Below, piece after piece: positions 5,458 to 43,965 of a DNA stretch of 64,000 nt. The DNA is from an uncultured Muribaculaceae bacterium (GTDB lineage Bacteria; Bacillota_I; Bacilli_A; RF39; UBA660): contig CAZJTX010000001.1 of assembly GCA_964549115.1 (NCBI GenBank), forward strand, positions 56,494 through 120,493, given 5' to 3'. Numbering within the stretch: position 1 is the first letter of the stretch; every line of letters starts with the position of its first letter. The notes under the pieces are model-generated. The model did not search any database and had not been told where the DNA came from. It saw only the letters and a list, made by a program, of their open reading frames with translations. The position numbers were made by a program, and so were the translations under genes.

Positions 5458-7110
5458 TTACACCCTTATCAAGGTGATTCTAGCATAACCACTGCCCGAA
5501 TGACCTGTTTCTGTTGTCCCCGTTGTTGAAGGAAATAAAGAATCTCCTGAAATTAATTGACAATTTTTCACAAAATGTTTGGTCGATATTTCTATATTAA
5601 TATTTGGATGATTAAAACAAAATCCTGAGCCGCCGCCTCCTCCTGATGAATAAGATCCACTGGCTCCAGATCCGCCACCATACCAGCCTCCGCCGCCGCC
5701 TCCGCCGTCGTATGCTCCATCAACACCATTTCCGCCTTTTCCATGACTCCCCGGTAAACCTGGTGTATAACTATTTTGTCCTGCTACACCACCCGCATTT
5801 TGTGAGCCGCCGCCACCTTGAGTTCCACATGAACCGTTATTGTAATGGCCTCCGCCAGAAATACCTCCACCGACTCCACCTGGTGCACAAGTGTCGCCAC
5901 CTTTTCCGCCGCCGCCGCCTGCCATTAATAATGTTTTATTTAAATCATTACCATTTAATCTAATAGATGTGGCTCCACCACCACCGCCACCAGTTGTAAA
6001 TGCACAGCCTCCACCGTTATATCCGGCACCGTCACAACCAGATGTTGAAACCGATCCGGCGCCTCCTATAGCTACAGATAAATGATTTCCCTTGTCTAAA
6101 TATACTTCACCTTCAGCATAACCACCTTTTCCACCAGCATTACCACCTTGGGCTCCCCATGTTTGGATTTTATAATATCCCGAATTCATTATTGGTAATG
6201 TTTGTAATGCTCCAGATGTAGGAAATTCATTAGGAATTCCTATAACGCACACTCCTGAATTCATCACTTTTGTTAATGAAATGTCATTTCCACTAATAAA
6301 TCCATCTATACCATCATCACACGTCATACTAGCATAAGTATTAACAAACCCATTATTAGGAGTAAATGAAGTATTTAAACTCCCGTTAAAACTTACAGTA
6401 TGAGTGTAATTAGACATAGTACCGTTTGATACTAAAAATTTTACAGTAGCAGCTGTTTCAACATCAAAATAAGCGGTACATGATACATTAGCTGCACCAG
6501 CACTAGATTTTATTTTTTTAGTTACTAAGTCAAATTCTAAAGGTGAACTATCAGAACAACCTGATTTTGACGAATTAAACATATAACCGGTTTTAATAAG
6601 TCCACTAATTGATAAGTCAGTTACATTAGTATATATTCCAGAACCTGAACCATCTAATTTTTTTCTTTCTTTTTTCAATACTAAATTAATATCGTCTGAT
6701 GTATTTATATTTACTGCATTAAAATAAAAATAACACTTGGTTGGACCAGTAGACGTAATATTAAATGTATCATCTTCATTTTTGGTAAATGTCGCACCAT
6801 TAGTACAACTAGATTGTCCCGCTTGATATGTATAATCCTTTTCTGGTGCTTTATAACTTGCATAATAAGTTCCATTACCTGCACCAGAAGAAGTTCTATT
6901 TTCAATCATATAAGTAATATTATAGTCTGGCTGAGTAACGTCCCCTATTTTTCCAGTAATTAAACTTCTGCTTGAGGTTGTTTTAAAATAAGCATACGAA
7001 ATATACCAAGAAACAGACAACATTAAAACAATTATCACAAACGAAACATGAAAAAATTTATTTTTTTTAATTATAGTTTTTAATTCATTAAGTAAATTCT
7101 TTATCTTCAT
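5458..7110 (-). CDS. glycine-repeat surface protein with SipW-cognate-type signal peptide
   Basis: 550 aa. N-terminal TM helix ending in SWYISYAYFKTTSS, which resembles the TIGR04088 GTyAyFsD cleavage motif. Long C-terminal Gly-rich repeats (GGGGGKGG, GGGGSQNAGG, GGGGGGGWYGGGSGASG). Confidence 0.6.
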   Translation of the reverse strand: MKIKNLLNELKTIIKKNKFFHVSFVIIVLMLSVSWYISYAYFKTTSSRSLITGKIGDVTQPDYNITYMIENRTSSGAGNGTYYASYKAPEKDYTYQAGQSSCTNGATFTKNEDDTFNITSTGPTKCYFYFNAVNINTSDDINLVLKKERKKLDGSGSGIYTNVTDLSISGLIKTGYMFNSSKSGCSDSSPLEFDLVTKKIKSSAGAANVSCTAYFDVETAATVKFLVSNGTMSNYTHTVSFNGSLNTSFTPNNGFVNTYASMTCDDGIDGFISGNDISLTKVMNSGVCVIGIPNEFPTSGALQTLPIMNSGYYKIQTWGAQGGNAGGKGGYAEGEVYLDKGNHLSVAIGGAGSVSTSGCDGAGYNGGGCAFTTGGGGGGATSIRLNGNDLNKTLLMAGGGGGKGGDTCAPGGVGGGISGGGHYNNGSCGTQGGGGSQNAGGVAGQNSYTPGLPGSHGKGGNGVDGAYDGGGGGGGWYGGGSGASGSYSSGGGGGSGFCFNHPNINIEISTKHFVKNCQLISGDSLFPSTTGTTETGHSGSGYARITLIRV

Positions 7111-7257
7111 ATTATTTTATCCTACAATTATCTAATTTAATTTTAAAACATATAATACGCTATGTCAAATAAAGTAACACCTATTTCGTAAAGATTTTTT
7201 TCCCTATTTAATAGAAAAATAGCTTAATTTAAGTTATAATATTATTAGGTGAATATG

Positions 7258-17697: not shown

Positions 17698-19170
17698 TTA
17701 TTCTTTTGGTTTCATTAAAGGAAAGATTACACATTCTCTTACGGGTCTGTCTACCAAGAATGAAAAAAACCTTTCTGATACCCCAAATCCAAATGCTGGG
17801 GGCATACCATATTCTAAAGCTTCGGTAAATTCTTTATCGTGTTCATGAGCTTCCAAATCTCCCGCCTCAGCCATTTCTCGTTGTTCTTTAAACCTTTTAT
17901 CTAAATCAATTGGATCGTTTAATTCAGTGTATCCATTTCCCATTTCTGAACCCGCTAATATAATTTGAAATTGAGCTACTTTTCTTGGGTCTTCTTTTAA
18001 TCTTTTTGGTAATGGATTTAACTCAACAGGTTGTCCTACTAAAAATCCAGGGCCTGCTAAATTTTTCCTTACTGTTTTCCAAAGTAAATCTACTAATCTC
18101 CAATAAGGAACATTTGGATCAAATTCAACATTCGATTCATTCAATTTTTTGATAATTTCTTCTTCACTTGAATTATATATTTCTATTCCTGTATTTTCTT
18201 TTATAATTGTTTCAAAATCATATATAGCCCACTCACTATTCATGTCTATATCAAATTCTTTAATTTTAATTTTTGAAGTACCCATTACTTTTTCAGTTAC
18301 TAACTGATACATTTTTTTCACAAAATCCATACCCATTTTATAATCCGCATAAGCCCAATAAAATTCCATTTGAGTATAATCTTGTAAATGTTCAGGACTC
18401 ATTCCTTCATTTCTAAATTGTCTACCTATTTCAAAAGTTTTATCATAACCTGCAACTAACAATTTCTTTTGCCACAATTCACCCATAGATATTCTTAGAA
18501 ACACATCTATATCTAGTGCATTATGATGAGTTTTAAAAGGTTCTGCAGCAGCTCCTCCTGTTGTATTTTCTAATACTGGGGTTTCCACTTCTAAAAAATC
18601 GTTCTCTAATAAATAATTTCTAATAGTTGCCCAAAATATTTGTTTTTTTCTAAATAAATCTTTAATCTCGGGATCAGTTATAATATCTAAATATCTTTTT
18701 CTTAATTTTATTTCCGAATCTGCTAATCCATGATATTTCTCTGGTAATGGCCTTAATGCTTTTGTTAAATGAATATACTTAGTAGCTTTAATAGATAGCT
18801 CACCAGTATTGGTTTTCATTAATATTCCTTCAATACCTACAATGTCACCTAAATCTGCTATATCAAATAAATAATAATTATCTTCACCTAACATATCTTC
18901 TCTAATGTATATTTGAATTTGCCCAACATTATCTTGAATATGCATAAAACCGGCTTTTCCTTTACCACGTTTAGTCATGATCCTTCCAGCTACTTTTACA
19001 CTTAAATTTAAGTCAACCAATTCTTCCTTGGTTAACTCACCATATTCTTTTAATAAATCTTTACTATAATGTGTTAAATCAAAACTATGACCAAAGGGAT
19101 CAATTTGTTTTTCTTCTAATTTAACTAATTTATCTCTTCTAACTTGTTCTTGTTCTGTTAACTCTTTCAC
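17698..19170 (-). CDS. lysS: lysine--tRNA ligase (class II)
   Basis: 490 aa. N-terminal OB anticodon-binding domain and class II motifs (…FRNEGMSPEH…, GGAAAEPF, GMGIDR-like). Confidence 0.95.
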   Translation of the reverse strand: MKELTEQEQVRRDKLVKLEEKQIDPFGHSFDLTHYSKDLLKEYGELTKEELVDLNLSVKVAGRIMTKRGKGKAGFMHIQDNVGQIQIYIREDMLGEDNYYLFDIADLGDIVGIEGILMKTNTGELSIKATKYIHLTKALRPLPEKYHGLADSEIKLRKRYLDIITDPEIKDLFRKKQIFWATIRNYLLENDFLEVETPVLENTTGGAAAEPFKTHHNALDIDVFLRISMGELWQKKLLVAGYDKTFEIGRQFRNEGMSPEHLQDYTQMEFYWAYADYKMGMDFVKKMYQLVTEKVMGTSKIKIKEFDIDMNSEWAIYDFETIIKENTGIEIYNSSEEEIIKKLNESNVEFDPNVPYWRLVDLLWKTVRKNLAGPGFLVGQPVELNPLPKRLKEDPRKVAQFQIILAGSEMGNGYTELNDPIDLDKRFKEQREMAEAGDLEAHEHDKEFTEALEYGMPPAFGFGVSERFFSFLVDRPVRECVIFPLMKPKE

Positions 19171-19202
19171 ACAATCACCTAGTAATATACTAACATTTAA
19201 TC

Positions 19203-19230
19203 AAAAAAAAAACTAGTAGACTAGTTTTTT
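19203..19230. terminator. palindromic (bidirectional) terminator
   Basis: A9-ACTAGT-AG-ACTAGT-T8, directly 3' of the gene at 19234-19764. Confidence 0.6.
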
Positions 19231-19233
19231 TAT

Positions 19234-19764
19234 TTATACTTTATAAAATTTAGTGTTTCGTTTAGATACTAAGTACGCTCCAATACCTAAAACTGAGATG
19301 ACGCTAATAATTGCCAATGGCATCGATACACCAGTTTGTGTTGGTTTACCAGTACTAATTGTTACTTCTGGATTTTGAGCATATGCTTTAAATGAAAACT
19401 TAACACTACAGTCTTCGATATTACTTGCGTATGAAAACACAACTTTACCTAAAAGAACTTTATCTGTATTTTCAAATAATTCTTTAGGCGTAAATATTAT
19501 TTTGTCACCATCATGTTCTACAGTAAAGAATTCACTGTTTTCCGTTCTAGCAACACTTACTCCTTCGGCCATCTCCAATGTAGCTACAATATCAGAATCC
19601 GCAGGTATCAATTGATCTGTTTCAATCCATATACTTACTTCTGTTTCACAAATATCTTCTCCTGCTAAACAAGAGTCTTTTGGAGTAACAGTAATCGATG
19701 TAGCAGCAAATACTGCAGGAACAAACATGACCATTAAAAGTAATCCTAATAAATATTTCTTCAT
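19234..19764 (-). CDS. secreted surface protein with sortase-type C-terminal sorting signal (KPTQTG + hydrophobic segment + KRNTKFYKV)
   Basis: 176 aa. Classical signal peptide (AVFA|ATS). The C-terminus carries the PTQTG motif, a TM stretch and a basic tail. Adjacent to a SrtB-like gene. Confidence 0.5.
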   Translation of the reverse strand: MKKYLLGLLLMVMFVPAVFAATSITVTPKDSCLAGEDICETEVSIWIETDQLIPADSDIVATLEMAEGVSVARTENSEFFTVEHDGDKIIFTPKELFENTDKVLLGKVVFSYASNIEDCSVKFSFKAYAQNPEVTISTGKPTQTGVSMPLAIISVISVLGIGAYLVSKRNTKFYKV

Positions 19765-19903
19765 AACACTCTCCTATCTTTATAATCCAATTATATCACA
19801 TCTTAATTAAAATCAACATAAAAATGCATTTTTTGAAATTATATACACCCTTTTTACATTTTAAATAATATAGTTTTATGTTATTATTATTCTAGGAGAT
19901 AGA

Positions 19904-21460
19904 ATGAAAAGGATTTTAATTCAAATTGAAAACAATAATATATATTTTAGATCCAAAAGAAAATTAACTAAAAATCAAGAAAATATAATGAATACTAACA
20001 TTATTTCTGGTAATGAGTTAACTTTTTCTGATGAGTATATTATCGAAAACAAAAAAATAGTTATTACCTTTATAAAAGAATTAGTTAAGGACAATAATAT
20101 AGATACCGCGATTATTTATAACAACTCTTTAGAAAGAGACTTAATAACTATTTTAAAACATATCCCTAACATTAAAAACTTAATATTAAAAGATAATGTT
20201 CCTCTTTCATTTAATATGTGTTCTGAAATTATAAAATCAAACATTAAAATGGTTAGTTGTTTTACTCTTCAAGATTTTTTGCTTGAATATTTGGATAGAA
20301 ATAACATAATAGTAGAAATCAGATGTGAACATCTTTTTGTAAGTGAATTCATGGAATTAAATATGTTAAATAAATACTCAAGTATTTATTATAAGAAAAT
20401 TCTTAATTTTAACTTTCCCCTAACTAAATCTGATATAGAAGACTTTGGGGCTTTCTTACACATTAATAAGTATCTTAAAGTTATTCACATCAACAACCCC
20501 ACTAAAGACGATTTGATTGTTTTATTAGATATTATTTTAAAACACAAAAAAACAAGTATAAAAATAGTTTTACATGATAATGTAACAGACATAGAATTAT
20601 TAGAACTTATTAAAAAACAAAATAATTTATTAAAAAAGAAAAGGATTAAAATAACAGTATCTTATAGTGACAACTATATAAAAAAGAACTTATTAAAACA
20701 AACTAATGTAACGATATTAAATATAAGTATATTGTTAATCATTACTTTAATATCTGTGAGTTTTATATATATATTTACAGATAATTATTTATCACATAAA
20801 AAAGTCGAAGGAATACAAGAAGATATTAAAGAAGTTATTAAAACAGTAGATGCAGAAACAATAATTCAAGAAATTGAAGAAAAAGAAAATTCTGTTGTAA
20901 TTAATGATTATATAGCTAGTTTAATAACTATAAATAGCGATACCGTTGGTTGGTTAAAAGTTCCTAATACAAGAATAGATTATTCGGTTGTTAAAGCTAA
21001 AAATAATGAGTTTTATCTAAGAAGAGATTTTAAAAAGAAAAAAGGAAGCATCGGATGGATCTTTATGGACGCTAGAAACAAAAGAGATATGAGTGATGAT
21101 AATACAATTATATACGGGCATAATTATTATGAAAGCACAATTATGTTTGGAACTTTAAAATATGCTTTAAATGAAAAATGGATATCAAACAAAAAGAATC
21201 TTATTATTTCATTTGATTCTTTATACGGTAATCTACAATATGAAATATTTTCAGTTTATATTGTTCCACCTGTTAACGATTATTTAAGAATTAATTATGA
21301 CAATATTTTAGATAGATTAGAATTTTTCAATATGTTAAAAGATAGAAGTATTCATAAATTTGATACAACTATAACTGGGGAAGATAAGATATTAACCTTA
21401 TCTACTTGTGAAGAAAAAGGAACTAAGAGACTTGTTGTTCATGCCAAATTAATAAAATAG
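19904..21460 (+). CDS. class B sortase fused to an N-terminal ~265 aa cytoplasmic LRR-like domain
   Basis: C-terminal domain has IIYGHN (His box), the TLSTC catalytic Cys motif and a conserved Arg (TKRLVVHAK). A TM helix spans about residues 268-290. The N-terminal domain has repeats of the LxxLxLxxN type. Confidence 0.6.
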   Translation: MKRILIQIENNNIYFRSKRKLTKNQENIMNTNIISGNELTFSDEYIIENKKIVITFIKELVKDNNIDTAIIYNNSLERDLITILKHIPNIKNLILKDNVPLSFNMCSEIIKSNIKMVSCFTLQDFLLEYLDRNNIIVEIRCEHLFVSEFMELNMLNKYSSIYYKKILNFNFPLTKSDIEDFGAFLHINKYLKVIHINNPTKDDLIVLLDIILKHKKTSIKIVLHDNVTDIELLELIKKQNNLLKKKRIKITVSYSDNYIKKNLLKQTNVTILNISILLIITLISVSFIYIFTDNYLSHKKVEGIQEDIKEVIKTVDAETIIQEIEEKENSVVINDYIASLITINSDTVGWLKVPNTRIDYSVVKAKNNEFYLRRDFKKKKGSIGWIFMDARNKRDMSDDNTIIYGHNYYESTIMFGTLKYALNEKWISNKKNLIISFDSLYGNLQYEIFSVYIVPPVNDYLRINYDNILDRLEFFNMLKDRSIHKFDTTITGEDKILTLSTCEEKGTKRLVVHAKLIK

Positions 21461-21466
21461 TTTGAA

Positions 21467-22300
21467 TTATTCATTCAAACTATTTACTATTTTTGTACCA
21501 GCCCACTCTAATTCGTTAGAGTTTTTTCTTTTAAAAGTATGTTTATATAAATATAATTTATCTTTAAATTTATTTATTACTATGTTTTTATAATCTTCAT
21601 CTAATGAAGATGTTTCAGTGTTTTCAACTATTACATTTTCATCGGTATTAAAAATAGAAGTTTTTCTTATTTGTTTTATTTTTTGAATATACATGTCATT
21701 TTCTTTTGTAATTTCTAATCCCGATAAGAATGCGGGTCTTTCATAAATATATAAACTATCCTCAGCTTCTTTATATCCTTCTATTAAACTTATCTTAGTA
21801 ACGTCTGATTCCTTTAAAAAGGCACAATATACATCGCTCTCAGTATATATACAATTACTACCTTCTTCTTGAATGTATTCAAGTTCGCTGATACCAAATG
21901 TGATATTAGAATTATAATTTACATATTCTTTAGATATAAAAACGCATTCTTTAGATTCAGTACAATGTTCTTCTTTAAATAAAAGAAATCCTTCCGGTGG
22001 AGTATCTTGGTTAACACTGTCTTTAAATATATACATTAGGTACTTGATTAAAATATTATGATTTATATTTTCTAAATTTAATTCCTCTTCTTTATATACT
22101 CCATCATCACCAGGAATATAAACTATATTTTTTATTATTTCTCGCGCCACATCAAATTCATTTGCTACGTCTACTTGCTCTGTTTTTTCTGGCACATTAC
22201 TTTCAACTAGAAATATTAAGTAAAATGTTTTAACGCCAAAAAAAGTTATAATAACTCCAAGTATTAATGTAATTATTTTTTTATGAGTTTCTTTTATCAC
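21467..22300 (-). CDS. hypothetical membrane-anchored extracellular protein
   Basis: 277 aa. Single N-terminal TM helix. Acidic Cys-containing ectodomain. Confidence 0.35.
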   Translation of the reverse strand: MIKETHKKIITLILGVIITFFGVKTFYLIFLVESNVPEKTEQVDVANEFDVAREIIKNIVYIPGDDGVYKEEELNLENINHNILIKYLMYIFKDSVNQDTPPEGFLLFKEEHCTESKECVFISKEYVNYNSNITFGISELEYIQEEGSNCIYTESDVYCAFLKESDVTKISLIEGYKEAEDSLYIYERPAFLSGLEITKENDMYIQKIKQIRKTSIFNTDENVIVENTETSSLDEDYKNIVINKFKDKLYLYKHTFKRKNSNELEWAGTKIVNSLNE

Positions 22301-23224: not shown

Positions 23225-23260
23225 CTTGTCAACTATAAGCGTTTCCTTTATAATATATTT
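23225..23260 (+). promoter_or_regulatory. sigma-A-type promoter
   Basis: TTGTCA, a 17 nt spacer, then TATAAT, upstream of the TasA-like gene at 23289. Confidence 0.4.
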
Positions 23261-23288
23261 ACAGGGTAAGTTATGTAAAGGAGTGGCT

Positions 23289-23900
23289 ATGAAAGGTAAA
23301 GGTAAGATTATTCTATTACTATTATCATTAACAATTACTATCGGCTTTATGAATAGTACCTATTCAAGATATGTTGCTGGTACTACTGGTAATGTTGAAG
23401 CTGACTTTGCTAAGTGGCAATTATTAGTAAACAATAATGATATTACTGATAATAATACTAACAGTATTAGTTTTACTCCTGTCATAGAACAAAGTGAACA
23501 TGTAAGAGATAATGTTATCGCCCCTTCTTCAAAAGGATACTTCGATATTGAAATAGACCCTACTAATGTAGATGTATCATTTAAATATAAATTAAGTTTA
23601 CAAATTGAAAATGAAGAAGTGCCAGATCTACTAATGAGTAAATACGCGGTGTTACCACTTGATTACGAAGAAGAAGACCCACTAACATTTATAAATATAA
23701 TGGATAACGAAATAGAGAACTCATTATATATGAACAACACAATAGAAAATTTCAAGTACGAAAAATTCACTATTAGAATATACTTTGAATGGTTTGACAA
23801 TGAAGAAACAGACCATACAGAAATAGGTTATTTAGCAGCTACTGAAGGTTATGAATTAGATATTAGTGCAGATATAACATTTGAACAAATATTCAATTAA
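23289..23900 (+). CDS. TasA/camelysin-like (peptidase M73 family-like) secreted protein with SipW-cognate signal
   Basis: The start at MKGKGKII is preceded by AAAGGAG. The TM helix ends NSTYSRYVAG. A beta-rich region (GYFDIEIDPTNVDVSFKYKLSL) parallels the TasA FxFxNxG segment. Confidence 0.5.
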   Translation: MKGKGKIILLLLSLTITIGFMNSTYSRYVAGTTGNVEADFAKWQLLVNNNDITDNNTNSISFTPVIEQSEHVRDNVIAPSSKGYFDIEIDPTNVDVSFKYKLSLQIENEEVPDLLMSKYAVLPLDYEEEDPLTFINIMDNEIENSLYMNNTIENFKYEKFTIRIYFEWFDNEETDHTEIGYLAATEGYELDISADITFEQIFN

Positions 23901-23902
23901 AA

Positions 23903-23920
23903 ACAACTTTTAAAAGTTGT
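23903..23920. terminator. bidirectional terminator between convergent genes
   Basis: Perfect palindrome ACAACTTTTAAAAGTTGT followed by T7. Confidence 0.55.
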
Positions 23921-23928
23921 TTTTTTAT

Positions 23929-25152
23929 TTATAAGTTTATTTTTTCTACTGTAATAACTGGTACTATATTACATGATTCTAAATTATTCTTTTTATATAT
24001 AGCAGAGGTGTTCTCATCTTCTTTTTTTATGGCAAATGTTGAGGTAGTATCATATACTGTATTAGTCCAATAACAATTATTAGAAACTAAATACTCCGGT
24101 TTGTTATTAAAAGTAAATATAGAATTGTTTAATTTAGCTTTATTTATAATAGTATTTAATCTATCTCCATAATATATGTGACCTAAGATTTCGGGGGCTA
24201 TACCCGTAGTTATTATTTGAGTATTTACAACGTCTTTAGAAACAATAGTTAATAAATCACCCACTTCTAAGCCTTTATAAGGAACAGTCCAACTTGAAGC
24301 TAATAACTGCATATTAGAAGCATAATCTGTTTGATTTGATGTAACATACTGAGTTGAAGGGTCTAACATTAAATTAACCTCTAAATCCCCTTTTTTATTA
24401 TCTCCATCTATAACTCTAGTTTTATAACAATCATTACCCACACTTGAGCAAGCTTGATTTAATACTGGGTTAAATAACACCTTTTTCCCCATCGGATAAT
24501 CAAGATCTGATGATGTTGCATCTTTTATATGTTGTTCCGCTATTACGCTAATAACTATCTTTATAGATGGTTGAATTAGGTAATTAGGATCTTGTAGTTT
24601 TTTATTGGCTTCGCTTTTTTGAAAAGCATATGCTCCATTACCCCATAAACTGTCAGCTTCATCATCATTTGAATCTAATGGCCATGAAATTGATACTGTA
24701 AATGTACCTTCATCTCCGTGTGCTAATAAGTGGTTTTTACTAAAACTCATGTTAATATGAAAAGGATAATTATGAGATATAGAGTCCTCTATATAAAGAG
24801 TATTCGGATTAATTTCATCATATTCATAATAATCTTCTTCGTTTCCTAGAATTCTAGCTGATGTTACAATATATTTTAAACTAGCATCAGAATCCCCCAT
24901 GTTTTTTATTTCCATCTTTTCACTTACTAAATCCATACCTGGGTGAATGTCCGATAAGCTAATTTCTATTTGATTAGAGATTGCCTCCCCGTCTTTAGTT
25001 AATTCTATATACCATGCCTTAACATCTATCTCTGTAGTCATTGAAGATAATCCGCTGTAAGCAAACCACGCCAAAGTAACAGCCATAAAAGATGTGACTG
25101 CTAGTGCAACTGTTACTAAATTAGCTCTTATTATTTTTAGTTTCTTATTCAT
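23929..25152 (-). CDS. TasA/camelysin-like domain protein with long C-terminal extension and SipW-cognate signal
   Basis: 407 aa. Signal/anchor ending VTLAWFAYSG. MEIKNMGDSDASLKYIV aligns with TasA FQFENNGSLAIKEV. Immediately downstream of sipW, as in tapA-sipW-tasA. Confidence 0.55.
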   Translation of the reverse strand: MNKKLKIIRANLVTVALAVTSFMAVTLAWFAYSGLSSMTTEIDVKAWYIELTKDGEAISNQIEISLSDIHPGMDLVSEKMEIKNMGDSDASLKYIVTSARILGNEEDYYEYDEINPNTLYIEDSISHNYPFHINMSFSKNHLLAHGDEGTFTVSISWPLDSNDDEADSLWGNGAYAFQKSEANKKLQDPNYLIQPSIKIVISVIAEQHIKDATSSDLDYPMGKKVLFNPVLNQACSSVGNDCYKTRVIDGDNKKGDLEVNLMLDPSTQYVTSNQTDYASNMQLLASSWTVPYKGLEVGDLLTIVSKDVVNTQIITTGIAPEILGHIYYGDRLNTIINKAKLNNSIFTFNNKPEYLVSNNCYWTNTVYDTTSTFAIKKEDENTSAIYKKNNLESCNIVPVITVEKINL

Positions 25153-25169
25153 CGGATACCTTCTTTAAA

Positions 25170-25721
25170 TTATACTGCGTTTCTCCTTTTTTCCTCTTTT
25201 GCTAACAATGACGTTAGTATTTGAGCTCCAACTATATAAAATGTCGGAATTATACAAAATAATAAAAATCCTATTTTATTACTTATTACTTTATATATAA
25301 ACGACAACACTACTGAACGATAAATTATCTTACCGTATAATTGATCTTCTGATATAATTGGGTCTTCAATTATATTGGCTAAACCTTTAGCTGAAAAATA
25401 ATATTTTCCATCTGAGGATTGCATTACGTTTGTAACTTCGTGAGTTACTACTTTTCCTTTAAAGCTACCCTCTTTACCTTGGTAACTAATCGGATCCCCA
25501 ATTTTTATTGATGAGGGCGGTACCTCTTTTGAGATTAACACATCTCCTACGTCATACTTAGGCATCATACTACCAGATATGACGGAAAACATTCGATATT
25601 TAAATATTGAAACCTGATTATTACTTATTCTTTGCAATAAAACTACTACTATAAACGCTAGTAGTAAAATAGTAACCACAACATTTAATATCTTTTTTGT
25701 TATTTTAAATGCTTTTTTCAT
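25170..25721 (-). CDS. sipW: signal peptidase I, archaeal/ER type (S26B), SipW-like
   Basis: 183 aa. N-terminal TM helix, the SGSMMP serine box, a VTHEV histidine box and a C-terminal TM helix. Good alignment to B. subtilis SipW. Confidence 0.8.
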   Translation of the reverse strand: MKKAFKITKKILNVVVTILLLAFIVVVLLQRISNNQVSIFKYRMFSVISGSMMPKYDVGDVLISKEVPPSSIKIGDPISYQGKEGSFKGKVVTHEVTNVMQSSDGKYYFSAKGLANIIEDPIISEDQLYGKIIYRSVVLSFIYKVISNKIGFLLFCIIPTFYIVGAQILTSLLAKEEKRRNAV

Positions 25722-26860
25722 TAAACGACTCCTTTTTTATTTTCTTTTAAGAACCTTTTCATTTCATCTTGGAATTGTTTTTTAATTTCTGTTTCTCCAG
25801 CAGTTCTCTTTATTTTCTCATTTTTAATTTCATCTGCAATCATTTTTATAATTTCGTCTTCACTTATATCATAACCACTATTTAGAAGAATCTCAATAAC
25901 TCTTCGTATTTGTTCCGTAATCATAACGATTCCATAATGATATAATTTTTCGTTTTGATCTCGTTTTCTACTTGAAATTGAATCTAAAACATAATAACTC
26001 ATTAAAAACGCATCGTCTAATATTCCACGCACCATTTCATTACCTGTTGTCTCTAACGATTGTTTACCTTGGGCATTTTCTTTAATCATGTCTTGATTTA
26101 ATAAAAATTGCCATAACTTACTTGCAATTTGGAAGTTGGGGTTTTTTAATATCATATTAGTTTTTCTAATTGGAGGAATAACAAATGGTACTCTTGCTTT
26201 TTCTAATGATGTAACAAATTCACTTCTTCTCCAGTTAGTTAAATAATCTTGAACAAATTTTATTCTAGATCTTATATCTTCAATTTCTTTTGCAAACTCC
26301 TCAGGGTTTTTATCTTTTGGTAATTCTCCAGAAGTAATTCTAAATTCTATATCTATTTTTTCAACATCTGTTTTAGCAGTAGATGAATATTCAAGATGTT
26401 TATGGTTTTTCATCTCAAAGTTATCTAACATTCTCTCTTTATCCAAGACAAATCTTAACATATGATCTATTAAAGTATATATAAATCTGTTTTCATATGT
26501 ATTATAAGTTTCTTCTCTTCTTTCAATTAATATCTTAGATGGTTGAACCTCCATAGTTTCTAAATCTATTTTATCGATAAAGTGAGTATTTTTAGCCAAG
26601 TTTTTAACACTTGCCACCCCTATTTTTTTGGCTTTTTCTATTGTTACTATGTCTTCTTCATTTATAAGCGCCATTCTAGGATTCTTTATAATGTTATCGA
26701 TATAAGGACAAGCAAACTCTAGTTCATCCAACCAATTTAAAGACATTGTATCACTGTCTACTTCCGACTTGTAATACATTGAAGAATCTACACTATCCAT
26801 GAATAGTGTAGCTTTTTCTTTTGCTAATTCTGTATTTTCAACATTAATCTTTTTAGCCAA
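25721..26860 (-). CDS. hypothetical cytoplasmic protein, partner of the AAA ATPase
   Basis: 379 aa. No TM helix and no recognisable catalytic motif. TAATG overlap with sipW. Follows the AAA gene by 12 nt. Confidence 0.35.
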   Translation of the reverse strand: MAKKINVENTELAKEKATLFMDSVDSSMYYKSEVDSDTMSLNWLDELEFACPYIDNIIKNPRMALINEEDIVTIEKAKKIGVASVKNLAKNTHFIDKIDLETMEVQPSKILIERREETYNTYENRFIYTLIDHMLRFVLDKERMLDNFEMKNHKHLEYSSTAKTDVEKIDIEFRITSGELPKDKNPEEFAKEIEDIRSRIKFVQDYLTNWRRSEFVTSLEKARVPFVIPPIRKTNMILKNPNFQIASKLWQFLLNQDMIKENAQGKQSLETTGNEMVRGILDDAFLMSYYVLDSISSRKRDQNEKLYHYGIVMITEQIRRVIEILLNSGYDISEDEIIKMIADEIKNEKIKRTAGETEIKKQFQDEMKRFLKENKKGVV

Positions 26861-26872
26861 GACTAATCACTC

Positions 26873-28414
26873 CTAAATTGATTTTTTCAATCTTTCCAAA
26901 TAATCTATACACTCTATCATTGCTCCATTTCCGAATTCCTTATTTAAGTATGCAATAAATGGATCAACTTCATCTCTTATTAATGTAATATTTAATTGGT
27001 CAAATTTTCTTAAAATTTTCTTTGCTATAAAGTAATCTATAGCTTCTACTTCTTCTCCCCCACAAGCAACATACACTGGAACAAATGTATTTAATTGTTT
27101 CATAATTCTGTTACCAAAAGCTATTCTAAAATGTTTAATAACATAATCATCCATTGCTCTAACTTTATCTATATTTGATTCTGAAACTTTTATTTGTTCT
27201 TCTGCTTCTTTAAATAATCCTTCTAAATAACTAGAATTAATATCCATTGCTGCCTGTTCTCTACTCTTAAATGGATCAATTCTACTATTGATATCTATCG
27301 GCATAGCTCTATCATAAACTTTATCCGTAACCATGAAGGTCGAGTCGTCGTTGTTAATTGTTCCGATATACCATAGATTTTCCGGTAGTATTAATTTACC
27401 ATTTTCTATTCTTTTAGGGTCATCTGGCCAAGCACTACTTACTACTTCAATTACCCACTCACTTCTTGATGGCATTTCATATATAGATAACATCTCCGCA
27501 AAGTAATACTCAACTCTCGCAATGTTCATCTCGTCTAATATAATTGTGTGAACATCGTCGTTAAATCCAGCTTCGTATAATTCCGCTAAAACATCTGATT
27601 CGTTAAACTTTTTCGTAAATTCGTTAAAGTATCCTAATAATTCTGTTTTATCTCTCCAAGACGGTTCAACTGATGCTATACATGCATCAACGTTAACAAA
27701 CTTACCCCAAGCATATGCTAGAGAGGTTTTACCAGTACCAGATATACCTTGTAAGATAATTAACTTACCACAAGCTAAACCCGCCATAAATGGTCTTAAA
27801 ATACTATAATCATAATACAATCTTAATTGACTAGCAGCGAATGCTCTAAAGTTGTCGGTTAATTCTTTTAAATTAAAATTATTACCATAATTTTTAACTT
27901 TATATCCTTTGTATTCTTCGTCTAATTTTGTAAGTTTAGTAAATCTAACATTAGCTAAATCTATTTCGCCTTCTTCTAATTCTTCTCCATCTTCAGTCAA
28001 CTGAACTTCTTCGTCATCAGGAGATAATCCTAGTTGCGAAACTTTCATTGCCATGATCTCATCTTTTTCTTTCATAAGTTTTTTAACTTGATGATTTAAA
28101 TCTCCGATTTCATTTAAAAGTTCTTCTTGATTATATTTTCCTCTTCCAAATTGAATGTATCTTTTAATACCCCAAAAGATTAACCAAAAAGTTAATCCTA
28201 CCATAGCAACTAAAACTAAAACAGTTAAACCCACTAATATCCATTCAACAGTTGTAAAACTTGTATTGTATGAGTTAAATACTTTTTGATAGTTCGTAAA
28301 CTTAAACATTTTAGCAAAGCCCGAACCTATTCCTTTAAATATAGTTATAACTCCATCAAAGAATATTGAGATAAACTCATAAAAGAATCTTACAAATGTG
28401 TGCATATTAATCAC
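26873..28414 (-). CDS. membrane-anchored AAA+ ATPase of the McrB/AAA_5 type
   Basis: 513 aa. One or two N-terminal TM helices followed by a coiled coil. Walker A GISGTGKTS, LDEMNIAR (DEiNRa-like) and NLWYIGTINNDDST…DRA (McrB-like). Confidence 0.55.
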   Translation of the reverse strand: MINMHTFVRFFYEFISIFFDGVITIFKGIGSGFAKMFKFTNYQKVFNSYNTSFTTVEWILVGLTVLVLVAMVGLTFWLIFWGIKRYIQFGRGKYNQEELLNEIGDLNHQVKKLMKEKDEIMAMKVSQLGLSPDDEEVQLTEDGEELEEGEIDLANVRFTKLTKLDEEYKGYKVKNYGNNFNLKELTDNFRAFAASQLRLYYDYSILRPFMAGLACGKLIILQGISGTGKTSLAYAWGKFVNVDACIASVEPSWRDKTELLGYFNEFTKKFNESDVLAELYEAGFNDDVHTIILDEMNIARVEYYFAEMLSIYEMPSRSEWVIEVVSSAWPDDPKRIENGKLILPENLWYIGTINNDDSTFMVTDKVYDRAMPIDINSRIDPFKSREQAAMDINSSYLEGLFKEAEEQIKVSESNIDKVRAMDDYVIKHFRIAFGNRIMKQLNTFVPVYVACGGEEVEAIDYFIAKKILRKFDQLNITLIRDEVDPFIAYLNKEFGNGAMIECIDYLERLKKSI

Positions 28415-30434
28415 TTTCTCCTTCTTTTAACTTCTTATATATATTTTCATAAATAATATTACCTTTATAATCATTAATTATACTTACTGGTGTATTATCT
28501 TTTACTTTTCTTGTCATAAACAAGTAATCTGCCAAATATATTCTTGTTTTATCTTTTACAGCTAATTTAGCATTAGTATCTAATATTAAAGCAAACTTGT
28601 AACCTAATTGTTTTAATTCTTTAATAATTTTATGATTAGCATTTAAGTCCTCATATGTAATACATGAAATAACATTATCCTTTGCATATTCATTATCAAA
28701 TAAACCAAACAATCTTTGTGTTTTCTTTACCTTTGGATATAAACTACCTGGAACATCTATATAATATTTTTTATCATGTTTATTATTAACTATATCATTT
28801 ACTAGTTGTTTTAATAATAATGTGATTAATATTTCTAGTTTGTCCTCCGCTACTACTCCTTCATTATATGTTTTATCAATTATGTAATCACTAAACACTT
28901 TGCTAAACGTAATATTGTGAGCTAATTTAACAACTTTCATATACTTTCTTGTTCTTACTTTAAAGAAGTCTAACTCAAATGTTGGAGCTCCCTCTTCCTC
29001 AAAGTAATATACATATAAATCTTTATATTTGTTTTGAACTTTAAGTATTTTCTCCGCCATATGTGGATGTTTTTCTTCTTCCCATTCTTTAAAGTTTTTA
29101 GCTAATGTCTTTTTAATAAATTCTTGCTTAACTTTATCTTCTTTTACAGTTTTATTAGCATGCTCTAAATGAGACACAACATTATAGTACTCAGAATATT
29201 TTTTAATAATGGTTTTTTCTTTATCGTCTTTTGTTTCTTTTAATAAGTCTTTCTCAAGTCTTTTTACTACTTTTAACATTTTATCTGTTATATTTTTCTC
29301 TACCGGTTTAATTGGTACACCTTTATAGAAATTATAATAATAACCTTTAACATAATGTTCACTATAATCTTTTTTAAACTTAGAATTAATTACATACTTT
29401 AGATCATCTTGGTTTAACAAGTCTACTATTTCAATAATTTCTTCTTGTTTTAAAGTTAGTAATAACTCCAGTACATTATCAGCCTTAGTTTCTTTCTTAG
29501 GCATTACTAATGGTTCTCTTGGTTTTTCTTTTTCTACTTCTTCTTTTGGCTCTTCTTTTACCACTGGTACTGGCTTTTGTTCTTTCATTTCTGTATTTGC
29601 AATTTCTAATAAGGTCTCATCTATCTCAGATTCATCAACCGATATCATCCTAAACAATACCGTTTCCGATTCTTCATCACTTATTGTATCCTCTTCAGTC
29701 GATTTCTCCTCGATTACTTCTTCTTTTGGTTCTTCTTTTACCTCTTCCTCTTCCATATCATCAATTAATACAGTCTTAAAAGTAACGGTTTTTTCTAAGT
29801 CTTCATTTATTTTATCTATATCTTCATCTTTAACTGTTATAACTTCAGTTAATTCTTTTTTAAGTTTTGGTTTTTTCTTTTCTTTTATCGGTCTTTCTTC
29901 TTTTGGGACAGGTTTATAAGTTTTTAATATATAATTAAAAATAACCACGGTTAACAATGCCGAAAACAATACCATTTTATTTAATATAACTTTTCTAAAT
30001 ATTCCAACATTAGGTATAATCTTTACTACTTTACCTACTATTTGTTTTGAAGATACAGGTTCATCTTTAACTTTATTAGCATCTCCCTTAGTTATATATT
30101 TATCTTGATATATACCTACTACTCTATGTGTAATAAACTCTTGATTAGATTCAAAAGTTATAACATCATTTAATTTAACATCTTTTGTTAACTTAACAAT
30201 AACCCAGTCTTGAGGCATGATGTGTTTAGCCATACTCCCAGTTTCTACTTCAAACAAAGAATATCCAAAAAATGTCGCATGTTTGGAATCAGTAAACTTT
30301 GTTTTTAAGTTTATAAATATAACAAGTACTAGTGTTAAACTAAATAAAAAAATTAGTATATTTAAAAATATATTCGCTATTTTTTTAAATACTTTATTAT
30401 TGTCAATTACCCCGTTTTTTATCTTCTCTATCAT
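28407..30434 (-). CDS. SipW-like S26B signal peptidase domain fused to a ~500 aa cytoplasmic KE-rich, possible degenerate EAL-like extension
   Basis: N-terminus has a TM helix, ETGSMAK, NDVITFESNQEFITHRVV, TKGDANKVKDEPVS and a second TM helix, aligning closely with SipW. The C-terminal region contains LKQLGYKFALILDTNAK and YLADYLF, which resemble EAL DDFG/KID blocks with the catalytic residues replaced. Confidence 0.55.
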   Translation of the reverse strand: MIEKIKNGVIDNNKVFKKIANIFLNILIFLFSLTLVLVIFINLKTKFTDSKHATFFGYSLFEVETGSMAKHIMPQDWVIVKLTKDVKLNDVITFESNQEFITHRVVGIYQDKYITKGDANKVKDEPVSSKQIVGKVVKIIPNVGIFRKVILNKMVLFSALLTVVIFNYILKTYKPVPKEERPIKEKKKPKLKKELTEVITVKDEDIDKINEDLEKTVTFKTVLIDDMEEEEVKEEPKEEVIEEKSTEEDTISDEESETVLFRMISVDESEIDETLLEIANTEMKEQKPVPVVKEEPKEEVEKEKPREPLVMPKKETKADNVLELLLTLKQEEIIEIVDLLNQDDLKYVINSKFKKDYSEHYVKGYYYNFYKGVPIKPVEKNITDKMLKVVKRLEKDLLKETKDDKEKTIIKKYSEYYNVVSHLEHANKTVKEDKVKQEFIKKTLAKNFKEWEEEKHPHMAEKILKVQNKYKDLYVYYFEEEGAPTFELDFFKVRTRKYMKVVKLAHNITFSKVFSDYIIDKTYNEGVVAEDKLEILITLLLKQLVNDIVNNKHDKKYYIDVPGSLYPKVKKTQRLFGLFDNEYAKDNVISCITYEDLNANHKIIKELKQLGYKFALILDTNAKLAVKDKTRIYLADYLFMTRKVKDNTPVSIINDYKGNIIYENIYKKLKEGESD

Positions 30435-36326: not shown

Positions 36327-37844
36327 TTAACTAACAATTACTTTTAATAATCTATGACCCCAGTTTTCAGCTGCATCTTCAACAGAATATAGTACGTAGT
36401 ATGTTCCTGCTTTCGCTAAGTTTACTGTTCCTGCTTTTGTTACGTCAGCATCTGTTAGATTTGTATCCACATTATCAGTTACTTCAGCTTCTGGTAACAG
36501 ATCTTCTAAGTCTCCTTCTGTACCTAACGCTATTTCAATTTCATCATTTTCTAAATATGAGCCATCTCCAGCTAAGAATTTAATTTCTGGTGCTGTTGTA
36601 TCTGATGCTCCAGGTCCTGCTCCTTGGTTAAGTGCTGGTCCTTCATAGCCTGAATCTCCAGGATATAGTTGTTGTTTTGAGAATCCAAATTTAACTGAAA
36701 TTTTTCTTCCAATTGCTGCAAAGTCATAGTTATCTATGTCTTGTCCTTCTAGGTATATGTATACTCTTACTTTAGTAATACTTGCTGGTTCAAGTCTCAT
36801 GAATTCTGGTCTTAATCTACCTCTCATTAATTTCATTGTATCTGTGAAATATTCAAATTCTTCTACGAACTCGCTATTAGCTTCGTATGTATTAAATGCT
36901 TTACCATCATAAATGTTAACGTTATCACCTGATCCAATTACTTTTTGCGCTACATATGTTGGATAACCAATACCATCTATCACTTCTTCACATTCGCCAG
37001 AATATGAATCTGTTTTAGTAACATCCGCACCTGTTCTTGCCGCACAGTTGGTTGCATAATAACTTATTGCATGAGTCTCATGATTTCTATCATTTGGTTC
37101 CCAAATTTGTGCATCTCTACAAATTCCAGTTACGTTATCATCACCCGTACAAGTAATTCCCGTTACAACTTCTGCATCTAATTCTTCTAATGCTGAAACT
37201 CTTCCGATTTGAGCAAATGCTACACGTACTGAGTTTTCAATTCCTGAACCTGCTACGCCGCCGTCTCCTGCATCTGGTGCCGATTCTTCAGTTACAGTTA
37301 CCGATGAATCAGGAGCTAGATAAATTGCTTCTTCGCCTAAAATATCTAGAGCTTTTAGATATTGATTACCTGAGCTATTTTTAACAAATAAATCAAATAC
37401 AACATATCCATCTGCTTCTTTATCACCTTTATTTTGAACTTCACTAACCATTAGTCTTAGTCCACCCGGTGTTCCTTCCGGTACAGCGGTTAAACTGGCT
37501 TTTTCATATAGAACTAGTCTAGATGAGGTTTGATCAATTTTACCTGCCGTTGACATTGGTATTAAACCACGTCCAGCCCAATTATTAGTATTACCTTCAT
37601 AGACAGTATCGGTGTCGTTAAAGGTTTCCTTACTAATTGCTACTGTTGTGTCAAAATTCTCGCCGTCAAACGATAATAACAAGCCATCAGCTGCTGCTAT
37701 TTCAATATCGAACGATGTTACGTTGACTGTTTGCATTCCTATAAACCATGCAAATGTTGCTACCAATAATACGATTGCACTAAGTGCACTAATACCTATT
37801 AGGTTTCTAACCCTTTTAGAGTGTTGAGGGTTTTCTTTTTTCAT
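36327..37844 (-). CDS. paralog A of the FAWFIGMQ/WLEGQD surface-protein family with C-terminal DUF5011 Ig-like domain
   Basis: 505 aa. Anchor …LLVATFAWFIGMQ. Shared motifs IPMSTAGKID, GYVVFDLFVKN, SVRVAFAQIGRV, GICRDAQIWEPND, KVRVYIYLEGQDIDNYD and SVKFGFSKQ. C-terminal Ig-like block TAPEIKF…GTYYVLYSVEDAAEN. Confidence 0.6.
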   Translation of the reverse strand: MKKENPQHSKRVRNLIGISALSAIVLLVATFAWFIGMQTVNVTSFDIEIAAADGLLLSFDGENFDTTVAISKETFNDTDTVYEGNTNNWAGRGLIPMSTAGKIDQTSSRLVLYEKASLTAVPEGTPGGLRLMVSEVQNKGDKEADGYVVFDLFVKNSSGNQYLKALDILGEEAIYLAPDSSVTVTEESAPDAGDGGVAGSGIENSVRVAFAQIGRVSALEELDAEVVTGITCTGDDNVTGICRDAQIWEPNDRNHETHAISYYATNCAARTGADVTKTDSYSGECEEVIDGIGYPTYVAQKVIGSGDNVNIYDGKAFNTYEANSEFVEEFEYFTDTMKLMRGRLRPEFMRLEPASITKVRVYIYLEGQDIDNYDFAAIGRKISVKFGFSKQQLYPGDSGYEGPALNQGAGPGASDTTAPEIKFLAGDGSYLENDEIEIALGTEGDLEDLLPEAEVTDNVDTNLTDADVTKAGTVNLAKAGTYYVLYSVEDAAENWGHRLLKVIVS

Positions 37845-37897
37845 ACTTTTTTCTCCTTCTTTCCTTTATTTTGAATAGTCTCTCTACTATTATATTA

Positions 37898-37925
37898 ATT
37901 TTATCATATCATTTGATTTTGTCAA
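37898..37925 (-). promoter_or_regulatory. sigma-A-type promoter of paralog A
   Basis: On the minus strand: TTGACA, a 16 nt spacer, then TAAAAT. The same architecture recurs upstream of paralog B. Confidence 0.35.
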
Positions 37926-37938
37926 TATTATTTGACGT

Positions 37939-39576: not shown

Positions 39577-39707
39577 GATTCTTCCTCTTCTATTTTAGAA
39601 TCTTCTAATGTTTTAATAAATTCAACAATGTCATTATATAGTTTAATTAAGTCAGTTAAACTTAATACTGACATGTCATAATCAACTTTTTTTACTTCCT
39701 TTTTCAT
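39573..39707 (-). CDS. small ORF (44 aa) translationally coupled to the coiled-coil gene
   Basis: MKKEVKKVDYDMSVLSLTDLIKLYNDIVEFIKTLEDSKIEEEES. RBS GGTGGA lies 5 nt upstream. Its TGA stop overlaps the ATG of the downstream gene (ATGA). It is below the ORF-track length cutoff. Confidence 0.4.
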   Translation of the reverse strand: MKKEVKKVDYDMSVLSLTDLIKLYNDIVEFIKTLEDSKIEEEES

Positions 39708-39801
39708 CTATCCACCTTTTATCCTTAAATTAATTAAGGGCAACCAACTAGATTACCCTTAATAATTTTATATTTCTAACATAATCAATAGTTAGTATTT
39801 A

Positions 39802-41319: not shown

Positions 41320-41374
41320 CTTTCTCCCTCTCTTTTGTGAACTTTTGTAAAGTCCTCTTTTCTACTCTAATTAA

Positions 41375-41402
41375 AGTTTATCACATTACCATTTTTTGTC
41401 AA
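41375..41402 (-). promoter_or_regulatory. sigma-A-type promoter of paralog B
   Basis: On the minus strand: TTGACA, a 16 nt spacer, then TAAACT. It is embedded in the same TTTGTCAATAaTAaTTGAC element found upstream of paralog A. Confidence 0.35.
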
Positions 41403-41430
41403 TAATAATTGACACAAATTAAAGTCTTTT

Positions 41431-42450: not shown

Positions 42451-42512
42451 TGGCTTTTCTTTAAATTTATTTTTAAGATCTTTTAATTTTACTTCTTTTT
42501 TTATGATAACTC

Positions 42513-43955: not shown

Positions 43956-43965
43956 TTGCTATCTC

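Follow-up and report, generated by a model that had tools for sequence, protein, structure and literature searches.

The DNA analyzed here is a 64,000-nt stretch of contig CAZJTX010000001.1 (assembly GCA_964549115.1), referred to as the window, and the subject of this work is a pair of divergent genes at its positions 19234-21460. One encodes a class B sortase (SrtB) of 518 amino acids (aa) in which the catalytic domain is preceded by a membrane helix and, ahead of this, by a domain of 265 aa predicted to be folded and cytoplasmic (hereafter the N-domain). The other encodes a secreted protein of 176 aa with a C-terminal sorting signal. The arrangement of N-domain and SrtB in one protein appears to be real and conserved in at least 80 species, probably in ~200 or more. 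The reading favored here, with moderate confidence, is that the two genes form an anchoring module of one SrtB and a single substrate, dedicated to anchoring, the N-domain serving as a protein-docking domain through which anchoring is coupled to a partner shared by all members of the N-domain family. The window itself is low-GC (~28%) chromosomal DNA, whose housekeeping genes include those for IF-2, FtsK, UvrD, RNase J, SerRS, MiaB and LysRS.

The features of the two genes are given below in window coordinates; the intergenic region, the ribosome binding sites (RBS) and the transmembrane (TM) helix were read from the sequence.

19904..21460 including the stop codon, plus strand: gene for the N-terminally extended class B sortase, 518 aa (open reading frame (ORF), TIGR03064, PF04203)
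19894..19898, plus strand: Shine-Dalgarno sequence AGGAG, 5 nt 5′ of the ATG at 19904
19904..20698, plus strand: predicted cytoplasmic N-domain, residues 1-265 (AlphaFold2 model, profile searches)
20711..20779, plus strand: single TM helix, residues ~270-292, with a Lys-rich stretch ahead of it
20939..21457, plus strand: SrtB catalytic domain, predicted extracytoplasmic, residues 346-518 (alignment to 2oqw, 1rz2 and 1ng5)
21119-21121, 21407-21409 and 21428-21430, plus strand: codons of the aligned triad His406, Cys502 and Arg509, respectively
19234..19764, minus strand: gene for the secreted sortase substrate, 176 aa (ORF; the same architecture lies beside the sortase in 69 of 72 loci)
19330..19344, minus strand: sorting motif P-T-Q-T-G, residues 141-145, with cleavage predicted between T144 and G145
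19237..19329, minus strand: hydrophobic segment (residues 146-167, Pro at +4) and tail SKRNTKFYKV (residues 168-176) (sequence logo)
19765..19903, no strand assigned: divergent intergenic region of 139 bp, presumed to hold the promoters of both genes
19771-19775, minus strand: RBS of the substrate gene, CTCCT on the plus strand

A scan of positions 19100-21600 for promoters and terminators gave counts at the level expected by chance in AT-rich DNA.

Class B identity and predicted membrane topology of the sortase

The 518-aa protein consists of the 265-aa N-domain, one TM helix, a linker and a canonical SrtB domain. An earlier reading of this DNA, made from the sequence alone, had classed it as a class B sortase, and this assignment held. 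The class B sortase equivalog model TIGR03064 matched residues 274-512 with 160.2 bits (cutoff 153.75), and the Pfam Sortase family PF04203 covered residues 351-516. When the sortase was used as a phmmer query, all 15 matches among PDB sequences at E ≤ 0.001 were SrtBs, the best being those of B. anthracis (125 bits) and S. aureus (124 bits). The first 14 Foldseek matches were SrtBs as well, the sortase part of the model used being of low confidence. Alignment to the SrtB structures 2oqw, 1rz2 and 1ng5 brought the GH(N), TLSTC and R-(L/I)-V-V motifs into register and gave the triad H406 (in IIYGHN), C502 (in TLSTC) and R509. The sequence-only reading had named these two motifs and a conserved Arg; the position of the catalytic His is corrected to residue 406. 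In a MAFFT alignment of 81 sequences, from which all conservation figures for the sortase were taken, H406 and C502 were invariant and R509 was at least 90% conserved. Judged by its sequence, the catalytic half is an ordinary class B member that shows every testable defining feature of the class.

The hydrophobic helix, earlier put at about residues 268-290, lies at ~270-292, and the AlphaFold2 model shows a long helix across residues 256-314. It is preceded by a basic stretch (KKKRIK...KKNLLKQ), and the sortase has no N-terminal signal peptide. A catalytic domain outside the cell is the obligatory topology of sortases; provided that it holds here, the basic stretch and the missing signal peptide indicate that residues 1-265 must be cytoplasmic. 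The textbook sortase is a 'minimal' enzyme made of a membrane anchor and an extracellular catalytic domain. The present protein departs from the usual type II topology with a short N-terminus, its single TM helix being preceded by 265 residues that are predicted to fold. A short N-terminus does not normally define the class, and the 265-residue extension makes the protein a variant of it.

Integrity and distribution of the fusion

Word-indexed protein searches recovered only family fragments from short contigs, and full-length members had to be sought with profile and genome scans. With one genome taken per GTDB species, relatives were encoded in 209 of the genomes scanned, and the best 80 of these were fetched. 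In 80 of these 80 species genomes, a single uninterrupted ORF spanned query residues 1-517, with 39-61% identity. When 1.84 billion representatives were searched exhaustively with an HMMER profile, ~116 clusters at 50% identity reached E < 1e-30, with lengths mostly of 505-565 aa. N-terminally extended sortases of this kind, a search for which had been suggested as a check, are thus numerous. At least 20 independent contigs from metagenomes carry the identical 518-aa sortase, called as one gene, and ~20 further metagenome loci also showed a single ORF.

A mis-joined gene had been named beforehand as a finding that would refute the sequence-only reading, and it is not borne out. The intact ORFs effectively refute the artefact reading, in which faulty assembly or sequencing fused neighboring genes for a membrane protein and an SrtB, or in which the extension is non-functional, and its probability is now negligible. 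Proteins made of the N-domain and a TM helix do occur on their own (see below), and in one locus, L106, the two halves lie in different frames; this was the sole split case, on a contig with 1.2x coverage. The fused protein has only one TM helix, however, and contains no internal RBS and no Met within residues 255-300, so that no internal start could yield a separate sortase. The mean frequency of the most common residue was 0.62 in the N-domain versus 0.68 in the sortase domain; the two domains are thus conserved to about the same degree, which suggests that the N-domain is under selection.

The 80 relatives come from uncultured gut metagenome-assembled genomes (MAGs) whose titles read 'Bacilli', 'Tenericutes' or 'Mycoplasma sp. 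CAG:776', and to judge from such titles the host group is probably the uncultured, low-GC, Mollicutes-related gut Bacilli of GTDB order RF39. Many third party annotation (TPA) MAGs with a Bacilli-type locus (L001-L024) are titled 'uncultured Muribaculaceae bacterium', which looks like mislabeling in the public records.

The neighboring substrate gene and its sorting signal

The divergent gene for a 176-aa secreted protein ending in KPTQTG-VSMPLAIISVISVLGIGAYLV-SKRNTKFYKV, described in the sequence-only reading, was confirmed at 19234-19764. The protein is made up of a signal peptide (residues 1-21; N-terminus MKKYLLGLLLMVMFVPAVFA...), a small Cys-containing, β-rich domain and the C-terminal sorting signal, in which 22 hydrophobic residues separate motif and tail. 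Among the ORFs of the window it was the only one with a clean sorting-signal architecture, and the identical protein is present on 28 contigs.

The pairing of this gene with the sortase was examined at the 72 loci that had enough upstream sequence, and family statistics were calculated on the 69 substrates found. In 69 of the 72 loci, a divergent secreted protein of 176-236 aa with the same signal architecture was encoded ~70-170 bp from the sortase start, which bears out the pairing proposed earlier. The usual gene order is DcuC-like transporter, lysS, substrate and, divergently, sortase. At L005, L016 and L078 the sortase is present and the adjacent substrate gene absent despite available upstream sequence; in L016, ~450 nt without an ORF follow lysS at the usual position of the substrate and may be a degraded copy. 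L037 carries a second, tandem paralogue (6742-7197, minus strand; 151 aa) with the same signal (NPKTG ... KKKKIYKI).

The mature domains of the substrates have a mean pairwise identity of ~21% versus 58% for the tail, the most conserved part of the protein. Sequence searches recovered only four homologues of the substrate, and the mature domain gave a weak match to YcnI (E 6e-4) and weak Ig-like matches. Within the signal, T at -1 was found in 67 of the 69 substrates, G at 0 in all 69 and P at +4 in 68, and the distance from this G to the C-terminus was exactly 31 residues in 67. The tail conforms to K-x-Y-K-I-COOH, with K(-5) in 68, Y(-3) in 61, K(-2) in 61 and I(-1) in 64 of the 69; the window protein ends in KFYKV. 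A C-terminus of the form K-x-Y-[KR]-[IL] occurred 60 times among the 1960 complete ORFs of the loci, and all of these were sortase neighbors or the tandem paralogue in L037, with the exception of one spurious ORF of 59 aa.

The first three positions of the motif vary (NKQTG, SPDTG, QPSTG, NPxTG, EVETG and, in the window protein, PTQTG). The full signal architecture named earlier is there; of the pentapeptide, only the T-G is really conserved in the family. A preference for N at -4 and for P at -3 places the motif between the NPxT(N/G) and (S/P)PxTG SrtB classes and fits the relationship to these classes suggested before. Matches to sorting-signal hidden Markov models (HMMs) were weak (Rumino_NPXTG and LPXTG_anchor in 26 of the 69 substrates each, EF0750_LPXTG in 27), and the window substrate matched no curated sorting-signal HMM at E ≤ 0.01. 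Near-invariant Lys residues were limited to K2 and K3 in the signal peptide and K172 in the tail, with none in the mature domain. To judge from this architecture, the substrate carries a genuine three-part sorting signal of the NPxTG / (S/P)PxTG kind, atypical in the conservation of its tail and in its fixed length, and the signal predicts cleavage between T144 and G145.

On the other side of the sortase, a convergent gene (21467-22300, minus strand) ends 7 bp past the sortase gene; its product, of 277 aa, has a TM helix at the N-terminus. It had no family match and, in the 80 loci, a single homologue, which places it outside the conserved module. In L003, L005, L006, L008 and L009 its place is taken by a gene for a protein of 136-148 aa, which has its TM helix at the C-terminus, together with a KILFLxKKK tail.

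Sequence and predicted fold of the N-domain

The N-domain, alone or as an 80-sequence profile, had no sequence relative in Pfam, NCBIfam or the PDB; on this evidence it is a new sequence family. Weak matches to MurD_N, Ubiquitin_4 and slr1658 were dismissed as chance. The AlphaFold2 model, built on a 111-sequence alignment, had a pLDDT of 89.4 and a pTM of 0.79. It shows two N-terminal β-hairpins, a long helix and then some eight β-strand/helix units with a period of 20-30 residues. Its only low-confidence stretch, residues 27-31, overlaps the conserved motif N30-T31-N32, in which T31 and N32 are invariant and N30 is at least 90% conserved.

A Foldseek search of the PDB with this model ranked leucine-rich repeat (LRR) domains first, namely those of NLRP3, RNase inhibitor, NLRP7, NLRP1, SKP2 and TAP (E 1.6e-4 to 1e-2, probability 0.77-1.0). 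Several of the repeats fit LxxLxLxxN-like patterns, for example IKNLILKDNVPL. The unit of strand and helix, 20-30 residues long, is shared with the LRRs of RNase inhibitor and NLR proteins (NLRP3, 7pzc; RNase inhibitor, 3tsr; NLRP7; SKP2). Unlike these, the N-domain has irregular repeats, an extra N-terminal β-hairpin subdomain and the invariant N-T-N loop. At the sequence level, even a cutoff as loose as E ≤ 1 gave no match of any of the 80 N-domains to the LRR families of Pfam, and a profile search of the PDB was likewise empty. The LRR-like periodicity reported in the sequence-only reading thus survives as a predicted architecture, supported by the ~eight β-α repeats and by LRRs being the best structural matches, and finds no counterpart in the profile searches; an LRR-like architecture is supported by the model, not proven.

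Stand-alone homologues and divergent fusions

In seven divergent homologues (278-298 aa), the N-domain and a C-terminal TM helix make up the whole protein, and all seven are encoded by complete genes inside contigs. In L081 (1491-6861), the stand-alone protein is the last of an operon that encodes LtaS, a 203-aa protein and an LCP protein (622 aa, with a PASTA-like tail). In L083 (1-8298) and L091 (1-8312), whose stand-alone proteins represent two clusters less than 50% identical, the gene is divergent from mraZ-rsmH-ftsL/DivIC-PBP2B and a PrsA-like rotamase gene comes next, and in L088 it lies among sporulation genes. A metagenome scan seeded with stand-alone proteins was of limited use: the first alignment was too divergent, and the second gave mostly further fusions. 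The N-domain would descend from, or have given rise to, this family of 'domain plus TM anchor' proteins.

Divergent fusions have other neighbors. That of L097 is preceded by a 461-aa NPKTG protein with the tail RKKNRFPQA, and followed by FemAB and MurD; that of L118 is accompanied by a 372-aa SPKTG protein with the tail KRKKLFKQI. The fusions of L099, L103, L110 and L111 adjoin an ordinary sortase of 229 aa and a SpaA-fold VPxTG protein. Three of these loci (L099, 11624-15217; L110, 11594-14938; L111, 3559-5299) also encode a membrane protein of 253-266 aa; their ordinary sortases are of 227-229 aa, and with the large SpaA-fold (Cna-B-like) VPxTG protein they resemble a pilus- or adhesin-like two-sortase locus.

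Essentially all of the residues T31, N32, I34, F41, Y45, F56, R140, S147, F149, N153, S159, Y163, N188, Y254 and N262 are kept in the divergent fusions, and most of them in the stand-alone proteins of the NTN type. Since these residues are retained both with differing substrates and in stand-alone proteins, the core function of the N-domain is not tied to the K-x-Y-K-I tail. Retention that does not depend on the type of substrate points to a common partner.

Proposed function of the N-domain and alternative explanations

In the proposed mechanism, Sec would export the 176-aa protein, and the hydrophobic segment and basic tail at its C-terminus would keep it in the membrane. Cleavage between the T and the G of PTQTG would follow, carried out by the extracytoplasmic SrtB domain with its triad His406/Cys502/Arg509, and the substrate would be passed to a peptidoglycan precursor. 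The N-domain, as a folded β/α-repeat (LRR-like) domain that shares the single TM helix of the sortase, would sit on the inner face of the membrane and act as a non-catalytic protein-docking module, tying the sortase to a cytoplasmic or membrane partner. This partner would most plausibly belong to the cell-wall synthesis, division or secretion machinery, and anchoring would then take place at the right place or time. The attachment of the substrate to peptidoglycan is putative, as are the docking role of the N-domain and its partner. The presence of FemAB and MurD beside the L097 fusion was counted in favor of a link to wall synthesis. No mur or pbp genes were found among the scanned ORFs of the window. 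A wall-less host, in which there would be nothing to anchor to, was set aside, RF39 genomes being predicted to be peptidoglycan-positive and to carry srtA/B (PMC10868615).

Several observations weigh against this docking proposal. The conserved polar residues N30-T31-N32, E38, R140, E142, S147 and N153 could mark a ligand-binding or active site. The global fit to LRR structures is poor, with TM-scores of only ~0.28 and a root mean square deviation of ~10 Å, and TIM barrels appear lower in the Foldseek list, for which reasons an open solenoid is not proven. Finally, the contexts of the stand-alone genes are heterogeneous (that of L086 follows a histidine-kinase/response-regulator gene, and that of L089 is near nrdD), and their link to envelope and division genes is no stronger than suggestive.

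An alternative that appears unlikely, though it deserves some weight, is that the N-domain binds the K-x-Y-K-I-COOH tail, so that the sortase captures its cognate substrate from both sides of the membrane. We know of no sortase for which such two-sided recognition of the sorting signal has been described. It would agree with the tail being the most conserved part of the substrate, with its four near-invariant positions and the fixed spacing of 31 residues, and with the restriction of the tail motif to sortase neighbors. Furthermore, the N-domain stops ~5 residues before the TM helix, where the 9-residue tail would emerge, and the binding of peptides is common for LRR-type domains. However, the divergent fusions keep all the invariant N-domain residues while their substrates lack the motif, as in L097 and L118; the fusions of L099, L103, L110 and L111 lie beside a SpaA-fold VPxTG protein. 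Most of these residues are also found in stand-alone proteins of the NTN type, which have no sortase or substrate gene next to them. Mutual information between tail or motif positions and sortase positions showed no enrichment in the N-domain (77 of the top 150 pairs, versus a background of 52%), a result dominated by phylogeny and uninformative. Tail docking is possible only as a lineage-specific addition. If true, it would make of the enzyme a transmembrane 'two-point ruler' that reads a tail fixed at 31 residues from the scissile bond. In a broader form of this reading, the N-domain and its TM helix would represent a new family of membrane-tethered cytoplasmic adaptors in Mollicutes-related Bacilli, which would serve extracytoplasmic wall-attachment enzymes such as the sortase and possibly LCP.

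There is only a small chance that the N-domain is an enzyme or small-molecule binder of the (β/α)8 type that acts on, or senses, for example, a wall precursor. The model does have about eight β-α units, and Foldseek matched it to TIM barrels (GcpE, PdxJ, TrpA, PRAI and designed barrels) with E values of 5e-3 to 5e-2. Many polar residues are conserved, flexibility is predicted for the invariant N-T-N loop, and 10 of the 80 members gave weak MurD_N matches. These last fell far under the threshold, however, and the structural matches of top probability were LRRs (0.96-1.0, versus 0.3-0.84 for the TIM barrels). Several repeats are of the LxxLxLxxN type noted above (IKNLILKDNVPL), and the profile searches of Pfam, NCBIfam and the PDB returned no enzyme family.

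That the protein is a pilus-polymerizing class B sortase like S. pyogenes Spy0129 or the SrtB of the S. pneumoniae type II pilus, with the substrate as its pilin, is improbable. Some divergent members (L099, L110) adjoin a SpaA-fold VPxTG protein and a second sortase, and four of the 69 substrates weakly matched the QVPTGV sorting-signal model. Against this, the catalytic domain is much nearer to IsdC-type SrtBs (123-125 bits) than to pilus SrtBs (74-81 bits), and the conserved K2, K3 and K172 lie outside the single mature domain of ~120 aa, leaving no Lys to serve as the pilin nucleophile. The RF39-type locus has only one substrate gene and no second sortase, nor is there one elsewhere in the window. 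The pilin reading was rejected because of the lack of a conserved mature-domain Lys and the closeness to IsdC-type SrtBs.

Comparison with other sortase systems

The catalytic domain aligns end to end, with ~35% identity and 123-125 bits, with the IsdC-type SrtBs of B. anthracis (motif NPKTG) and S. aureus (NPQTN) (2oqw, 1rz2, 1ng5). The His/Cys/Arg triad and the adjacent position of the substrate gene are also shared, and N(-4) and P(-3) are the commonest residues of the present family motif. The differences lie elsewhere. IsdC-type SrtBs have a short N-terminus before the TM helix whereas the present sortase has the 265-aa folded cytoplasmic domain. The substrate does not belong to the NEAT/heme proteins, and isd genes are absent from the neighborhood. 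Its family conserves only the T-G of the pentapeptide and adds the conserved K-x-Y-K-I-COOH tail.

The SrtB of C. difficile (4ux7; 101 bits) belongs to a gut Firmicute in which the class B fold serves surface proteins of a general, non-heme kind; it recognizes xPxTG-type motifs ending in TG, including (S/P)PxTG (PMC8225981). It has no cytoplasmic domain and several scattered substrates, whereas the present system has a single, adjacent substrate that is conserved across the clade.

Weak C-terminal matches linked 26 of the 69 substrates each to the Ruminococcus NPXTG proteins (NF033846; best E 4e-5) and to LPXTG anchors (TIGR01167; best E 2e-4), the mature domains of which are unrelated to those of the present substrates. 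To our knowledge, neither of these two family definitions includes the conserved Y-K-I C-terminus.

The closest functional analogy is offered by S. coelicolor SrtE1, which also has a sizeable cytoplasmic N-terminal extension. In Streptomyces, this class E sortase carries an unstructured cytoplasmic extension of 100-200 aa that is needed in vivo and has been proposed to take part in protein interactions (PMC5148588). The two enzymes belong to different classes and phyla, and the SrtE1 extension is described by acidic and basic patches, not by folded repeats; no sequence relationship between it and the N-domain was found. In a full-text search of the literature on RF39 sortases, on N-terminal extensions of class B sortases and on cytoplasmic extensions of sortases, the present architecture was not found described, the SrtE1 extension being the sole precedent. 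The sequence-only reading's view of the fusion as unusual is in keeping with this.

Other features of the window

A 183-aa signal peptidase I of the SipW (archaeal) type is encoded at 25170-25721 on the minus strand (TIGR02228, 78.6 bits). It adjoins genes for two secreted proteins without a family match (23929-25152, minus strand, 407 aa; 23226-23900, plus strand, 224 aa), and the region 23226-25721 may hold a fiber system like that of TasA/camelysin. Another ORF, of 675 aa (28407-30434, minus strand), has a SipW-like domain at its N-terminus (66.8 bits). Between the two SipW genes, at 25721-28414, lies a McrBC-like candidate defense pair that consists of a 513-aa AAA protein (PADLOC PDC-M26A, 127 bits; weak McrB match) and a 379-aa DUF2357 protein.

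A run of genes at 36327-45405 on the minus strand encodes proteins of 339-545 aa. Five of them were scanned, and three matched PF16403 (Bact_surface_Ig-like) at the C-terminus, with up to 64 bits. None has a sortase signal, which suggests that these surface proteins would be attached in some other way. A 550-aa protein (5458-7110, minus strand) strongly matches the glycine-rich ALK/LTK domain (PF12810, 118 bits), of a family named after animal receptor kinases.

Implications

The enzyme class and the overall logic of the system are familiar; what is new is the folded cytoplasmic domain conserved across a clade and the invariant tail of the substrate. A predicted folded cytoplasmic domain that equals the catalytic domain in conservation, and is fixed across a clade of abundant but uncultured gut species, is a departure from the minimal sortase. 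As far as we know, how sortases are positioned or regulated is an open question even for model Gram-positive bacteria, and the partner of the N-domain would reveal how this one is. The N-domain, for which there is no Pfam or NCBIfam model and which is also found on its own beside division/cell-wall and LCP/LtaS genes, deserves definition as a family. The single conserved substrate with its unusual tail provides a handle on the cell surface of RF39-type bacteria, and the pair of sortase and signal could become an orthogonal tool for protein ligation. For the bacteria themselves, the arrangement implies that the anchoring of a surface protein in these reduced-genome gut organisms is coupled to something intracellular.

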